Source of the DNA: a virus
Lineage: Duplodnaviria; Heunggongvirae; Uroviricota; Caudoviricetes
Direction: 5' to 3' (one strand)
DNA length: 64,000 nucleotides
IMG/VR virus record: IMGVR_UViG_2623620505_000001
This document shows, in pieces, positions 11,703-56,042 of the stretch. Position numbers and translations under genes: made by a program. Positions within the stretch are counted from its first letter, which is position 1. Each line of letters starts with the position of its first letter. Under the pieces are notes generated by a model. That model worked only from the letters and a program-made list of their open reading frames with translations, did no database searches and had not been told where the DNA came from.

Positions 11703-11772
11703 TTTTTCTCCAAATTTGCATCAACCTTCAATCACCAGCTCGAAATGGTGATTCTTTGCACTTAGAAAACGA

Positions 11773-11789
11773 AATTTATTAGAGCAAAT
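11773..11789 (-). promoter_or_regulatory. C1 operator-like site upstream of kilA-repL
   Basis: Reverse strand reads TTTGCTCTAATAAATTT vs known P1 C1 operator consensus ATTGCTCTAATAAATTT. Confidence 0.65.
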
Positions 11790-13129: not shown

Positions 13130-13330
13130 TCACTAACAGGTTTAACAACCTGCTACCCGCTGCTAAACAGGTGGCAGGACGTGACGGGGTTAGCAGACTG
13201 GCGTTAGTGAAACCAGCAGGCCGAAGCCTCCCCATCACGCCCCACCATAATTTGGGCGTAACGCGGTTTTACGGACACAAAAATACCGCAATATCGGATA
13301 TCTGCGGTTGTCCGCACTAACATTCAGGCT
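13130..13330 (-). ncRNA. c4: region expected to encode c4-like antisense repressor RNA (exact ends not determined)
   Basis: Known: in P1 c4 RNA lies between the operator-controlled promoter and icd. Seen: operator-like site at 13434-13450 and repeated CTGCTAAC/TAGCAG complementary elements. Boundaries are inference. Confidence 0.3.
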
Positions 13331-13433
13331 GCTAAACCCGGTCGCAGAATTTGCTACGACGGCGGAACTATAAGCCTGAACGATTAAAAGGTCAATATGA
13401 TGCGAAAAGATAGCATTCGCGACTTAAAAATAC

Positions 13434-13450
13434 AAATTTATTAGAGCATT
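13434..13450 (-). promoter_or_regulatory. C1 operator-like site at immI promoter
   Basis: Reverse strand AATGCTCTAATAAATTT (1 mismatch to consensus). Confidence 0.65.
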
Positions 13451-13546
13451 GTGTGCTTAATAAATACACAATTGGATCTAATAACCTCTTTTTTTTAAAG
13501 GCGAAAATATGTACCCTAAATGAGTTATAAGGCAGGTGAGGTTATA

Positions 13547-14194
13547 ATGAGAAAACTATTACTACCGTTATTATTTATGGCTGGGACTGTTAATGCAGCA
13601 TCAAGCGTAAAGGAGATTTGTACCGATTATACGAAATACCTTGGGCACGTTTACGGCTTTGCTGTCAGTCAAGACGAATCCATGCGCAAGAAGTTACTGT
13701 CAGATATGAAACGCCTTAAACTTTCTGAAGCGATGGTGCAGCAAGAACTGTATAAAGTCGCAACCAACGAAAATGCTAAATATCAATATTCTCGCCTGTT
13801 AAATCCCGACGCAAACGAGATCAATCGAAGCTCTTTCGATTATATGGTAAAGGCATGCGAAACCGCTCCTGATTTTGCTATTCCTAGCTGGGGTGTGCTG
13901 GTGGCGAGCAATGCCGTTAATAAAGAAGACGTTGGAAGAAATGGCATTGACTCAATCAGAAATGCCCCTGGAATGCGCCATCAAAACGTGCAGGGTACGC
14001 TTGAAGAGCGGGCCAGGGGGCCGGGTACAAACTCCCCAATGGGAAACCTCTCACCAGAGGAATTGCAAGAGTATAACCAACGGATGGAGCAGTATGAGAA
14101 AGCGGCACGCGAACAAATGGAACAACAAAAGAACGGCTCACTTAATACCTTTCAGCAAGGTTTAAAAGCGCTTAATTTACCATATGAATGGTAA
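13547..14194 (+). CDS. secreted protein with signal peptide; candidate superinfection-exclusion (Sim-like) protein
   Basis: Track ORF 13520..14194 trimmed to ATG at 13547 with GGTGAGG RBS; signal peptide MRKLLLPLLFMAGTVNA; shares PGMR..VQGTLEERAR motif with Sit. Sim assignment is positional inference. Confidence 0.5.
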   Translation: MRKLLLPLLFMAGTVNAASSVKEICTDYTKYLGHVYGFAVSQDESMRKKLLSDMKRLKLSEAMVQQELYKVATNENAKYQYSRLLNPDANEINRSSFDYMVKACETAPDFAIPSWGVLVASNAVNKEDVGRNGIDSIRNAPGMRHQNVQGTLEERARGPGTNSPMGNLSPEELQEYNQRMEQYEKAAREQMEQQKNGSLNTFQQGLKALNLPYEW

Positions 14195-14255
14195 ATATAT
14201 TATGGATAACCAATTAAAATATTGATAATCGTTAATATCCAAAGGAGATAAATTA

Positions 14256-14732
14256 ATGCGCATCAAACGATTTTTTCTAATTCTTGCTTTGCTTACTCCA
14301 TTTTCATCAATGGCAAATGTAAGCAAATGGTCAACCGGCGAGACTCATGGTGTTCGTTCTTATGCTGTTTCCAGCAAAGATAATTATACGCTTACATTTG
14401 AGTGCGATGTTGGATTTAATAATACGGATCCCAATCAAGTAGGAACACGACTACTCACTCTCATGAAAACAGAACCTGGCGGTGAGTCATTTGATGCTAA
14501 AAAAGAACAAATAACGCTGAAAGTTGGTGATGATGAATATCCTATAAGTTCTATCGGTTCCTCTGTGGGTGATAGTTACTGGTATGGTTTTTGGTCAGAT
14601 ACCCCTGATATGGAAGTAAAAACATTCGATGCATACGTAGACGGAAAAAAAATTGCAACATTTACGCTACGTAAGGCCGCAGAGCTTTTCAACGCGGCAC
14701 CTGAAGATGGCTGCCTGAAGCGCGCAAAATGA
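14256..14732 (+). CDS. secreted protein (signal peptide MRIKRFFLILALLTPFSSMA)
   Basis: 158 aa, strong RBS AAAGGAGA, cleavable signal peptide. Confidence 0.5.
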   Translation: MRIKRFFLILALLTPFSSMANVSKWSTGETHGVRSYAVSSKDNYTLTFECDVGFNNTDPNQVGTRLLTLMKTEPGGESFDAKKEQITLKVGDDEYPISSIGSSVGDSYWYGFWSDTPDMEVKTFDAYVDGKKIATFTLRKAAELFNAAPEDGCLKRAK

Positions 14733-14766
14733 CCTGTCACAAATGACTACTCGTAGAATCGGTTAA

Positions 14767-15357
<591 letters not shown>

Positions 15358-16956: not shown

Positions 16957-19900
16957 ATGGAAAGAAAAAACGCCAATATTGACGATGTTATAAGGACAGT
17001 TGAAACCGCCAGCGCGAAAGAGCTGGAAGAGCTTGCAGGTATTCGGGAAGCTGTTGAAGATTTGAAAGGGGAACGAGTTGCAACTGTTGATCCTGTCTCT
17101 CGCAGTGTGTCGGCATTAAATCGCACAATCGAAAATTCACGTCCTGACTTTGTGACCAATGTGCCATCAGTGGACTCTATTGTTGACGCAATGAAACGGC
17201 TTAATTTAGGGGACGTTTCTCGTATACGGGAGGACAAAGTCACTAACCGTGAACAGCAGGCTGCACCAACAGCGCACAATCCCCCAAATAGACGAAGAGA
17301 GGCAATAACAGAGGATGTTAAAGCACAGCGGTTAGAAACGGTCAAACTCGCTCGTGATTTGAAAGGGGAACGCGTTGCAACGGTTGACCCAGTATCTCGC
17401 AGTGTGTCGGCATTAAATCGAACAATCGAAAATTCCCGGCCAGACTTTGTGGCCAATGCGCCATCAGTAGACCCTATTGTTGACGCAATGAAACGGCTTA
17501 ATTTAGGGGACGTTTCTCGTGTAGTTCAGGAGGGCATTGCTCAACAGGAACAGCAGGCCAAATCAACTACACCAAAGGGTAAAAAAAGACGCAGGAAGGC
17601 TATATCAGAGGATATAAAGGCACAACGGACCGAAGCAGCCGAACACGCTCGCGAAATGTTCGATCAAAAAGGCGGTGCGCAAAAAAGCCAAAACCAACGC
17701 GATGCGCGTGGTCGTTTTATTGGAAAGTCAGGGAGTAAGGCCGCAGCGGAAGATGCCCGTGCTGAACGTGCTGAAAAGGCCAGGCGCAAAGAGGATGATG
17801 AGCGTCTAAATGCTGAATCAGGTTTATTAAAAAAACTGTCAAAAGTAGCTGAAGGCATAGGTAACCCTTCAGAGACTCGTGCCGTCGATGCGTTAGGTTA
17901 TGCCGTTGCTGGTCCATTGTGGGCAGCAGGGAAGGAGCTTGGCGGGATATCAAAAGAAGTTGGTGGATCGCTTAATGGCGCCAGAAAGTCTATTGCCGAT
18001 GTGATTCGTGGCAATGACGATAACAGCCGTAGAAAAGGTTTTTTTAGGCGTAAATCGCAAAATAGTGCCGATGTCGTTCAGGTTAACACCCAAAAACGGA
18101 CGGTTCAGGAACTTCAGGAGCAGACCAGCGAAATTAAAGAGGGCAATGACAAGATTCTCAGCGCCCTTGATCAGATAGCCAAAAACACCGGGAAAAAGAA
18201 GGGCGGCTTGCTGTCCAAACTATTTAGCCTGTTAGGGAAGGGGGCCGGTGGCGTCGCGTCGTTGTTAATGGGGCGTGGCATGCTGAAAAAAGCTGGAGCA
18301 CTCGCTTTTGGCGCTCTGGGGGCAAAGAAACTTGTAGGAATGCTACGCGGTGGTGGCAAGAAGACTATCGCCCATGAAGGTGGAGATTTGGCTGCCCGGG
18401 CAGCAGGTAAATTTGGATTAAAGGCAGTTGGTAAAGGGGCGTTACGCGCAATTCCCTTAGTCGGCACAGTGGCTGGAGGTATTTATGATGCGGTAACCGG
18501 TTGGAATGATACAGAAGCGCAACGTCGAGCGTTTGGGCTTAAATCAGGACAAGAGCCATCATTCCAGCAAAAAGCCGCTTATACGTTAGCCAATGTTCTT
18601 GATATGGGGGGACTGGTATCTGGTATTAGCAGCGCCATTGGTGAGGTTCTCAAATCACTTGGATTTGAGGATATCGGCAATATGTTGCAATCATTTTCGA
18701 CGGAAAGTATTGCCCAGGCCATTGATAGTGGGATTACCAACTTAGAAACATATATTTCTAACCTTGGCGACACCATTTCTACCAAGTTCGAAGATTACAC
18801 AGCAAAGATTGGTGATGCTGTTTCAGCATGGTTTAGCGATACATCTAATAAGCTGCTTGAAAAGCTGGATGCCATCAAAGACTTCTTTACTGTTGATAAC
18901 CTGAAACAGGTTTTCAGTGATGCAATTGATAGTGCAATTGATTTCATTAAGAACCCAGGGAAACACATTAAAGAGGCGGCTGGTAATATTTGGGATGGGG
19001 TTAAAAATTTACCTGGTAAAGCATTAGATGCAGCGGTTGATGCCGTTAAAAATACCCCTGCGGCAATGATTGTATCAAAAATACCCAATCCGATCGGCGA
19101 GGCTAATGCGAAAGAAATCACTCCGGAGTTAAAAGCTCCGGTTAATAGCCACCAGGAGACGTCTGATTCTAAAACTGAATCCGATGCCAAACAGAGTAAT
19201 ATTGCTACCCGCGTGATAAATGCGGCACTGGACACAGCGAAAGATAGCAATAAAACAGTTAAACAAACTGCTAATCAGATTATCAATGCAAATGCCGTAG
19301 AAACGGGCAATAGCGCGTTGCAGAAAATTGATAAAGCTATTGGTCAAAATAGCTCGTCATCATCGTCGCTTAATACCACTGGCACCAGGAATGACATTCA
19401 GAAAGCTGCGGATACTTACAACAATGGCAACTTAGATGTAAAAGTCGGAAGTCTTGGCGCTGAAGGTAAGGCAAATCTCGATAAGTTGGCTCCGTATTTT
19501 GCCGAACTAGAGAATAAATACGGTCTTCCAGAAGGCACTCTTTACGCGATTGCTGCAACTGAATCTGGTGGTAATCCGTATGCAAAATCCCAAACCGGTG
19601 CTCTGGGGATGTTTCAGTTCACGGGGATTGCTCGTGAAGAGACTGGCTTAGCTGAAGGTGAATCGTTTGATCCTGTGAAATCGGCAGAAGCTGCGGCTCT
19701 TCTCATGAGCAAGTATCTTAAGCAAGCCAATGGAGACTTAAACGAGGCCATCACTGCATATAATGCTGGGTTTGGCACTATTAATAAGTGGAAAAAAGGC
19801 ACCGGTGACTTATCGAAAGAAAACCGTGAGTACGCGATCAAGGTCAATACTCATCGTGCTCGCTATTTAGGTGGTGAAATCTATACACCTGGAGCAGGAG

Positions 19901-20646
19901 CACAGGGTGGGGCGCAATATGGAGTGAGGGGACCACTGCCTGATAACGCTGTTATCGATCAGTATACTGGCCTGGCGTTTACCCCTGGTGATAGCCCGTT
20001 TGAGAAAGGCGGTCTGGTCGACAAAATCGGCAATGCTGTTGGCGTTAACGATCTGGTCAACAAATTCATGAATGGCCGGGGGATGCGTCGGGAAGTCGTT
20101 CAGGGAACGCTAGAAGAACGTGCACGAGAGAAGGGGACCGCAACAGCAGCTGGCAATGTGTATGTTGATACTCCGATGCCAGTTGAAGAGGCGCGTCCGG
20201 TGGCCAACAACTCAAGTTACTTTGACCATCTCGGCGCACAAATGGGGATTGATGGACTATTCGATAAACTCCGCAACTCGCCGGGGATGCGGAAAAATAA
20301 TGCGCCTGAACCAGCCTCCACGTCCCAGGTGACGACTGCCGCCAACGATTTGCAGCAACCAACCGGTCGTATGCAGATAGACGGGCAGGTTATTAGTGAC
20401 CTTGGCGGTTCCGGTGCCAAGCCGACAATGCAGTTGGCTGATAATACCGTTTCACTTGATGGTGAAACGAAGCGGCTGTTTGCGCAGATGACCTCATTGC
20501 TTGCCAGGATTGAAGAGCACACCAAAGACTCGGCGAAAGGCCAGGGAACTGTCGTAAAGGTCAGCACGCCTCAGCCGGGCGTTATGCGCACGGTACCACT
20601 GTCAATTGATGATCCGTTGATGAATGACTACGCGAGAGTTGATTGA
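16957..20646 (+). CDS. sit: Sit-like tape-measure/injection protein with soluble lytic transglycosylase domain
   Basis: 1229 aa; Gly-rich linker region; SLT motifs ...ESGGNPYAKS..GALGMFQF... and AYNAG; position as P1 sit. Confidence 0.8.
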   Translation: MERKNANIDDVIRTVETASAKELEELAGIREAVEDLKGERVATVDPVSRSVSALNRTIENSRPDFVTNVPSVDSIVDAMKRLNLGDVSRIREDKVTNREQQAAPTAHNPPNRRREAITEDVKAQRLETVKLARDLKGERVATVDPVSRSVSALNRTIENSRPDFVANAPSVDPIVDAMKRLNLGDVSRVVQEGIAQQEQQAKSTTPKGKKRRRKAISEDIKAQRTEAAEHAREMFDQKGGAQKSQNQRDARGRFIGKSGSKAAAEDARAERAEKARRKEDDERLNAESGLLKKLSKVAEGIGNPSETRAVDALGYAVAGPLWAAGKELGGISKEVGGSLNGARKSIADVIRGNDDNSRRKGFFRRKSQNSADVVQVNTQKRTVQELQEQTSEIKEGNDKILSALDQIAKNTGKKKGGLLSKLFSLLGKGAGGVASLLMGRGMLKKAGALAFGALGAKKLVGMLRGGGKKTIAHEGGDLAARAAGKFGLKAVGKGALRAIPLVGTVAGGIYDAVTGWNDTEAQRRAFGLKSGQEPSFQQKAAYTLANVLDMGGLVSGISSAIGEVLKSLGFEDIGNMLQSFSTESIAQAIDSGITNLETYISNLGDTISTKFEDYTAKIGDAVSAWFSDTSNKLLEKLDAIKDFFTVDNLKQVFSDAIDSAIDFIKNPGKHIKEAAGNIWDGVKNLPGKALDAAVDAVKNTPAAMIVSKIPNPIGEANAKEITPELKAPVNSHQETSDSKTESDAKQSNIATRVINAALDTAKDSNKTVKQTANQIINANAVETGNSALQKIDKAIGQNSSSSSSLNTTGTRNDIQKAADTYNNGNLDVKVGSLGAEGKANLDKLAPYFAELENKYGLPEGTLYAIAATESGGNPYAKSQTGALGMFQFTGIAREETGLAEGESFDPVKSAEAAALLMSKYLKQANGDLNEAITAYNAGFGTINKWKKGTGDLSKENREYAIKVNTHRARYLGGEIYTPGAGAQGGAQYGVRGPLPDNAVIDQYTGLAFTPGDSPFEKGGLVDKIGNAVGVNDLVNKFMNGRGMRREVVQGTLEERAREKGTATAAGNVYVDTPMPVEEARPVANNSSYFDHLGAQMGIDGLFDKLRNSPGMRKNNAPEPASTSQVTTAANDLQQPTGRMQIDGQVISDLGGSGAKPTMQLADNTVSLDGETKRLFAQMTSLLARIEEHTKDSAKGQGTVVKVSTPQPGVMRTVPLSIDDPLMNDYARVD
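17059..17520 (+). repeat. two 165-bp imperfect direct repeats (about 90 percent identical, period 297 bp) inside sit
   Basis: Seen: 17059-17223 vs 17356-17520; encode duplicated 55-aa unit DLKGERVATVDPVSRSVSALNRTIENSRPDFV.N.PSVD.IVDAMKRLNLGDVSR. Confidence 0.85.
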
Positions 20647-39856: not shown

Positions 39857-39873
39857 AAATTAATTAGAGCAAT
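39857..39873 (-). promoter_or_regulatory. C1 operator-like site upstream of ssb operon
   Basis: Reverse strand ATTGCTCTAATTAATTT (1 mismatch). Confidence 0.6.
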
Positions 39874-55938: not shown

Positions 55939-55955
55939 AGAATTATTAGAGCAAT
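55939..55955 (-). promoter_or_regulatory. C1 operator-like site in immC region
   Basis: Reverse strand ATTGCTCTAATAATTCT. Confidence 0.6.
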
Positions 55956-56014: not shown

Positions 56015-56042
56015 TTTGACAATTGCTCTAATAAATTATAGT
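56015..56042 (+). promoter_or_regulatory. sigma70-like promoter with C1 operator in spacer, reading toward coi-c1
   Basis: TTGACA (56015-20), ATTGCTCTAATAAATTA (56022-38, near-consensus operator), TATAGT (56037-42). Confidence 0.65.

Follow-up and report, generated by a model that had tools for sequence, protein, structure and literature searches.

Peptide motif shared by a SimA-type protein and the Sit tape-measure protein of a P1-like prophage: possible mimicry in superinfection exclusion

Why would a small, putatively exported protein of a P1-like prophage carry a peptide that recurs in the tape-measure protein of the same phage? The question is raised by a 64,000-nucleotide (nt) stretch of viral DNA (IMG/VR record IMGVR_UViG_2623620505_000001; the whole stretch is referred to as the window), which is a P1-like (Punavirus) plasmid prophage of Escherichia coli. 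Its genes follow the P1 order: icd/ant on the minus strand, followed by the sim slot, pmgC, tub, pmgB, sit, pmgA, and bplA, all on the plus strand. The sim slot adjoins the c4/icd/ant immunity region (ImmI) and contains in the window a gene at 13547-14194 (+), where an earlier note, made from the DNA letters, had placed an open reading frame for a 215-amino-acid (aa) protein. The PHROG 3933 profile covers residues 1-215 of this protein (E=5.3e-137), which makes it a member of the SimA domain family, and its NCBI name is "SimA domain protein"; the gene and its putatively exported product are referred to here as simA-long and SimA-long. The other partner, Sit, is a tape-measure and injection transglycosylase of 1229 aa (16957-20646, +).

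The answer favored here, held with somewhat less than even confidence, is that SimA-long may be a periplasmic superinfection-exclusion factor imitating a linear motif that the Sit C-terminus presents once it is ejected, much as the earlier note had proposed.

The peptide shared by SimA-long and Sit

The shared peptide, GIDSIRNAPGMRHQNVQGTLEERARGPGT, corresponds to residues 132-160 of SimA-long (nt 13940-14026) and belongs to a Sit-like linear motif that spans residues 132-168 (13940-14050, +); its core, NAPGMRHQ (residues 139-146, nt 13961-13984), is followed by VQGTLEERARGPGT..MGNL. Sit contains the motif twice, in both cases C-terminal to its SLT lytic transglycosylase domain (residues 847-956, E=3e-27; 19495-19824, +). 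Copy 1, residues 1029-1068 (GVNDLVNKFMNGRGMRREVVQGTLEERAREKGTATAAGNV; 20041-20160, +), includes the segment NGRGMRREVVQGTLEERAREKGT at nt 20071-20139; copy 2, residues 1097-1115 (GIDGLFDKLRNSPGMRKNN; 20245-20301, +), is shorter and lies inside an insertion of ~45 aa specific to the E. coli P1 type. The coordinates that the earlier note had given for these three segments were right to within a few bases. Its claim that the peptide closely matches two segments of Sit holds well for copy 1, with 22 of 47 residues identical between SimA-long 122-168 and Sit 1026-1068 (BLASTP, E=1e-7), and less well for copy 2 (SimA-long 129-181 against Sit 1096-1140, E=0.019); the homologous stretch is also longer than had been noticed, ~40-46 residues, running from a short helix before GMR through ...MGN(L/V). 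The Smith-Waterman score of 93 compares with 40.5 +/- 5.7 (maximum, 70) over 1000 shuffles, 0 of which reached 93, and the two family profiles cross-match reciprocally (SimA-long to the Sit family PHROG 2533, E=8e-8; the Sit C-terminus to PHROG 3933, E=1.6e-7). When the whole window was translated in six frames, the pattern N..G[ML]R was found at the three motif sites and in one unrelated minus-strand match.

The underlying DNA differs, as had been pointed out: the SimA-long and Sit copies use the same codon at 5 of 18 identical residues and are identical at 55 of 93 nucleotides, and codon sharing is similarly low in 10 other elements. Because so few of the identical residues share a codon, the similarity is old and maintained at the protein level, and the homology is real. 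A recent duplication or gene conversion is ruled out by the same codon counts. Around GMR, a few brief stretches are identical (L007, L011) and the Arg codons fall into matching families, which is too slight to support such a case. A Sit or tape-measure identity of SimA-long itself was rejected, as only its residues 129-171 match the PHROG 2533 profile (positions 929-972) and it contains no SLT domain; judged by these matches, SimA-long shares a module with Sit and is not a member of the Sit family.

On the Sit side, the pattern G(V/I)xxLxxKFxNxxGMRxxVVQGTLxERAxGxG is present in every orthologue examined (13 paired elements and P1), and the C-terminal region has 16 representatives among 1.84 billion 50%-identity clusters. 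A distant tape-measure protein (P0031, 39% identity) keeps the core in the form KARNAPGMRHQVATGSMADRAYGMGTSTMMGN, and two others that have a different muralytic domain (P0039 and P0041, ~30% identity) carry one or two copies of (N)AEGLRHQ. In Sit variants whose SLT module has been swapped, the motif module is unchanged. These observations bear on an alternative modeled on T4 Spackle, which, like HK97 gp15, is an envelope-located exclusion protein that blocks a post-adsorption step via the tail lysozyme or the tape-measure protein (TMP). The N-terminal domain of SimA-long could likewise inhibit the SLT transglycosylase of an incoming Sit, providing protection from lysis from without as well as exclusion, and the Sit-derived peptide would then be only a tether or a mimic of an intramolecular SLT-binding segment. 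An inhibitor of this kind is unlikely, given that the motif does not track the type of muralytic domain.

Sit is mosaic in its own right: in some E. coli and Salmonella Sits, the C-terminal motif module is the same but the SLT sequence joined to it is clearly different, and the two meet immediately ahead of PDNAVIDQ.TGLAFTPG (fragments P0052 and P0055). The protein also contains a tandem duplication at 17059-17628 (297-bp unit, 1.9 copies, 81% matches), encoding a repeated EDLKGERVATVDPVSRSVSALNRTIENSRPDFV... block, and because of it Sit has 1229 aa in the window, whereas the P1 protein has 1140 aa and those of close relatives have 1124-1132 aa. If Sit serves as a length ruler, this duplication predicts a longer tail or else an N-terminal part that does not determine length. 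Sit is the P1 tape measure and the carrier of the tail-associated muralytic activity (PMC9024508), and the P1 cryo-electron microscopy structures do not resolve it (PMC12810830). An AlphaFold2 (AF2) model of Sit residues 961-1229 is of low confidence over its whole length, with a mean predicted local distance difference test (pLDDT) score of 41; the motif region has short helices, and a single long helix is placed close to the end.

Architecture and conservation of SimA-long

The start codon at 13547 has GGTGAGG a few bases upstream, and an alternative in-frame ATG at 13520 would yield a protein of 224 aa. By inspection only, residues 1-17 (MRKLLLPLLFMAGTVNA; 13547-13597, +) form a candidate signal peptide with a V-N-A cleavage motif: followed by ASS, they fit the classical n/h/c pattern of a Sec/signal peptidase I substrate, lack a lipobox Cys, and keep this pattern in all SimA-long orthologues aligned, in agreement with the earlier description of the protein as secreted. 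The AF2 pLDDT is below 50 for residues 1-15. Next comes an all-helical N-domain (residues 18-125; 13598-13921, +), delimited from the AF2 model and from the invariant columns of the orthologue alignments, which include C25, C104, and the IPSW tetrapeptide (residues 112-115); residues 19-125 are modeled as a confident helical bundle (pLDDT of ~87-95). The motif region, residues 131-168, has a pLDDT of ~44, and the variable C-terminal tail (residues 170-215; 14054-14191, +) is predicted to be one long helix, with moderate confidence over residues 170-208, and is swapped or missing in other alleles. As modeled, SimA-long is a three-part protein that consists of a ~105-residue helical domain, a flexible linker carrying a ~40-residue homologue of Sit, and a swappable tail.

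The low model confidence at the motif in both SimA-long and Sit is what a linear motif lying in a flexible region could be expected to show. Such a location is typical of recognition or processing sites and favors an explanation without any exclusion, in which the processing or localization of both proteins would depend on a periplasmic protease, chaperone, or envelope protein of the host that recognizes the motif, and SimA-long would have its role elsewhere (envelope modification or defense against unrelated phages or colicins). The conservation of the motif across genera in SimA-long and Sit alike fits this explanation, as does the presence at the locus of other small secreted proteins (YfjT-like and SH3-domain proteins; see below). 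However, no known cleavage or targeting motif resembles N-x-x-G-M-R-H-Q, which has no match in Pfam, NCBIfam, PADLOC, or PDB, and anything competing for that host factor would disturb Sit all the same, so that a shared signal merges with mimicry unless the factor is in excess. As a separate explanation, it seems improbable.

Searches of PDB and BFVD revealed no fold or sequence relative of SimA-long, and neither the motif profile nor the SimA-long family profile found a match among PDB sequences. SimA-long has no NCBIfam match, and neither it nor its downstream neighbor has a match in PADLOC. A motif-profile search of 5.8 billion proteins returned only three short fragments and did not recover even Sit itself. 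The assignment of SimA-long to the PTP-like phytases (PF14566) was rejected: the score of 26.7 bits falls short of the cutoff of 27, only profile positions 46-132 are covered, and the catalytic C-x5-R loop is missing, with neither C25 nor C104 having an Arg at +6. Residues 74-101 (YSRLLNPDANEINRSSFDYMV) faintly resemble the repeated helix of staphylococcal protein A (E=0.84, nonsignificant), which is probably a chance resemblance.

The best-conserved segment of SimA-long is the motif core, N139-A-P-G142-M-R144-H-Q146. In alignments of 13-18 orthologues (38-97% identity, five genera), N139 and R144 are invariant and G142, M143, and Q146 are at least 90% conserved, and the fraction of sequences with the majority residue is 0.85 in the core (residues 139-146), 0.77 in the N-domain (residues 18-120), 0.64 in the linker (residues 121-138), 0.50 in the extension (residues 147-161), and 0.32 in the tail (residues 162-215). 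All SimA-long orthologues, including the one from Pantoea at 42% identity, carry the consensus form of the core, N-x-x-G-M-R-(H/Q)-Q, with little or no change. The absence of the motif from orthologues of either protein, named in the earlier note as an outcome that would refute mimicry, was looked for, and the core proved to be kept in SimA-long orthologues and Sits alike; of the peptide originally described as conserved, it is this core that holds up, whereas the VQGTLEERAR half is not universal. Downstream of GMRHQ, the orthologues have either a Sit-like extension, x-V-(Q/E)-G-(T/S)-L-x-x-R-A-(R/Y)-G-x-G-T..MGN(L/V), or an unrelated Cys-containing module. The Pantoea orthologue retains both the core and the extension, and the tape-measure protein of the same element has NAPGMRHQVATGSMADRAYG. 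A common allele of 163 aa stops just after the motif, so the N-domain with the motif looks like the retained unit.

The same alignments bear on the possibility that the motif is a by-product, a functionless fragment of sit captured by illegitimate recombination in a gene that may be decaying. The sim region is a recognized hypervariable, low-GC mosaic hot spot (PMC9603915, PMC6906374), the breakpoints coincide exactly with the edges of the motif (after GMRHQ and after ...GPG), and truncated or frameshifted alleles and the P1 relic are frequent, all of which speak for such an origin. Yet the core is the most conserved part of orthologues that are 38-97% identical and come from five genera, while synonymous sites between the two copies are essentially randomized. 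A neutral insert would have decayed like the tail, so the strong conservation of the core weakens this explanation and leaves it quite improbable.

The sim locus and the relic of simA in P1

The earlier note had called the protein Sim-like, which is correct for its position at the sim locus and not for its ancestry: SimA-long shows no similarity to P1 SimC (BLASTP, E=28) and is instead a full-length SimA. A tblastn search of the window with P1 SimB and SimC found nothing meaningful; simB and simC are missing from it. The segment at nt 13300-14800 is 96.7% identical to phage vB_EcoM-Ro157c2YLVW, and its first ~390 nt are ~96% identical to P1. The part encoding the first ~45 residues, together with the upstream control region, is ~95-98% identical to P1 simA at the DNA level. 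The near-identity ends at 13655-13690 (+), where the P1 simB-simC cassette begins, and the Met46 codon of simA-long lines up with the ATG of P1 simB. The P1 simA gene (L001 9221-9379) has 52 codons, and its 52-aa product, annotated as a "putative superimmunity accessory function," shares the N-terminus of SimA-long and stops before most of the N-domain and the motif. Because the identity breaks off at this point and the simB start codon falls on Met46, P1 simA is a 5' relic of the full-length gene, whose body was displaced by the simB-simC cassette. This corrects the annotation, as P1 simA is a remnant of simA-long rather than an accessory gene.

The SimA-long family is narrow, with 28 clusters (90% identity) among 5.8 billion proteins, all from Enterobacteriaceae, and occurs only on P1-like phage-plasmids of Escherichia, Salmonella, Klebsiella, Cronobacter, and Pantoea; the 42%-identical orthologue is encoded on a 94-kb P1-like contig of "Candidatus Pantoea alvi." In PLSDB, the identical 215-aa protein is found on many E. 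coli IncY-type phage-plasmids, and ~125 plasmids have an intact N-domain and motif, compared with ~140 that carry the stump only. Several database alleles (P0008, P0017, and P0021) are frameshifted around residues 115-140 and go out of frame on reaching the motif or shortly ahead of it, which may reflect genuine pseudogenes or errors in assembly.

A C1 repressor operator (13434-13450, minus strand), which has 1 mismatch to the consensus and corresponds to Oc4/Op51 in the P1 annotation, lies 97 bp upstream of the SimA-long start codon, within the divergent c4-simA control region; the upstream region, including this operator, is ~98% identical to that of P1. A scan with the 17-bp operator consensus, allowing up to 2 mismatches, gave 5 matches in the window (11772-11788, 13434-13450, 39857-39873, 55939-55955, and 56022-56038), compared with 0.01 expected by chance, which is consistent with a P1-type immunity network. 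A scan of the simA-long region found no terminator.

Downstream of simA-long, a gene at 14256-14732 (+) encodes a 158-aa secreted protein, assigned to the YfjT family (PHROG 3429); the protein has a signal peptide and is 57% identical to the L010 protein that carries PF27224. A YfjT-like gene is found 3' of simA-long in most related elements, sometimes in 2 copies, and the two proteins may act jointly. Other alleles of the sim slot contain, between simA-long and pmgC, an additional "SH3 domain-containing protein" of ~350 aa (L003 9089-10147; L004 9628-10662) and small open reading frames. The slot behaves like a cassette of small, probably exported proteins.

A possible exclusion mechanism and its counterparts

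The C-terminal end of the T4 TMP is located at the tube's distal end and is exposed after contraction (bioRxiv 10.64898/2026.03.06.709160). In the sequence of events proposed for P1-like phages, the C-terminus of Sit, with its SLT domain and motif, would be the first part freed into the periplasm upon tail contraction. There the motif would engage a partner; a factor of the host envelope, the opening at the tail tip, and further Sit chains are candidates. A resident SimA-long, displaying the same motif on its flexible linker, would occupy that partner or coassemble with the incoming Sit, and the DNA of a superinfecting P1-like phage would then not be delivered. Exclusion by mimicry is plausible in these terms and fits the anatomy of the protein.

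Several observations weigh against this mechanism. Export of SimA-long to the periplasm is predicted from sequence only, and the C-terminal region of Sit is probably disordered, with the qualification that low pLDDT is no proof of disorder. Approximately half of the orthologue types have the Cys-containing module in place of VQGTLEERAR, so this half of the motif is dispensable in many orthologues. Covariation across genera speaks for the mechanism but is weak and suggestive only: in seven elements with the extension, the BLOSUM sum for a SimA-long motif and its own Sit is 551, compared with 501 +/- 24 for permuted pairs (fraction reaching the own-pair value, 0.013), in a permutation that ignores shared ancestry. 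Examples of paired likeness are G-S-M in both proteins of Pantoea and G-x-G-V in both proteins of two Salmonella-type elements. A strict covariation of SimA-long with Sit copy 2 within E. coli was rejected, as L030 and L043 pair RNAPGMR with INARGMR. The frequent inactivation of the gene, through the relics in P1 and ~140 plasmids and through frameshifts, indicates that selection for simA-long is not universal. No clear sigma-70 promoter was found by the promoter scan on the plus strand upstream of simA-long. Finally, with the P1 genome paper (Lobocka et al. 2004) set aside, a literature search found no paper that describes the motif or the full-length gene, and only the name simA was met.

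How DNA from contractile-tailed phages such as P1 crosses the periplasm and inner membrane is still little understood, and the Sit motif, together with a resident protein that copies it, offers a concrete experimental handle on P1 injection in the form of an eight-residue core. If the mechanism is correct, it would expose a motif-dependent docking step in P1 DNA delivery, involving a host factor or a tail-tip contact; the duplicated motif of the E. coli-type Sit would be a countermeasure that raises avidity; and the turnover of the sim locus in P1-like phage-plasmids, which commonly carry resistance genes in Enterobacterales, would be partly explained. The wider proposition that P1-like prophages exclude their relatives by means of a periplasmic decoy whose motif was copied from the tape-measure protein is more doubtful and is put forward as a speculation.

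The closest counterpart is P1 Sim (SimC), a small exported protein encoded in the same slot, between c4/icd/ant and pmgC-tub-pmgB-sit, which in contrast has no sequence similarity to SimA-long and does not contain the GMR motif. Sim is thought to prevent DNA injection by superinfecting P1 (PMC8546580, citing Devlin 1982 and Kliem & Dreiseikelmann 1989) and is nonessential (PMC10695390). If SimA-long acts by mimicry, which is possible and falls somewhat short of an even chance, it could be regarded as a functional analogue, not a homologue, of Sim. That exclusion proteins act on tape-measure proteins is established: Imm of T4 binds gp29, the TMP of that phage (bioRxiv 10.64898/2026.03.06.709160). 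Imm is comparable as a phage exclusion factor aimed directly at the TMP during genome delivery through a contractile tail, but it resides in the inner membrane, docks on a helical-bundle domain of the TMP, and has neither a sequence in common with its target nor any mimicry. Ltp of phage TP-J34 is an envelope exclusion protein that acts after adsorption on the tail-tip machinery (PMC3952083).

SimA-long has no detected homology or fold match to Spackle, Ltp, or gp15, and none of these three is known to carry a copy of a peptide of its target protein. The TolB box and TonB box of colicins offer a parallel to the mode of action: each is a short linear motif in a disordered segment, and in the periplasm it vies with an endogenous ligand for binding to a host protein. 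The resemblance is one of analogy only, as the sequences differ and the mimic is the invader in the case of colicins, whereas here it would be the resident. On this hypothesis, SimA-long would belong with the prophage exclusion factors aimed at the tape measure, adding decoy mimicry to their known modes of action as the first exclusion mechanism based on imitation of the injection machinery.
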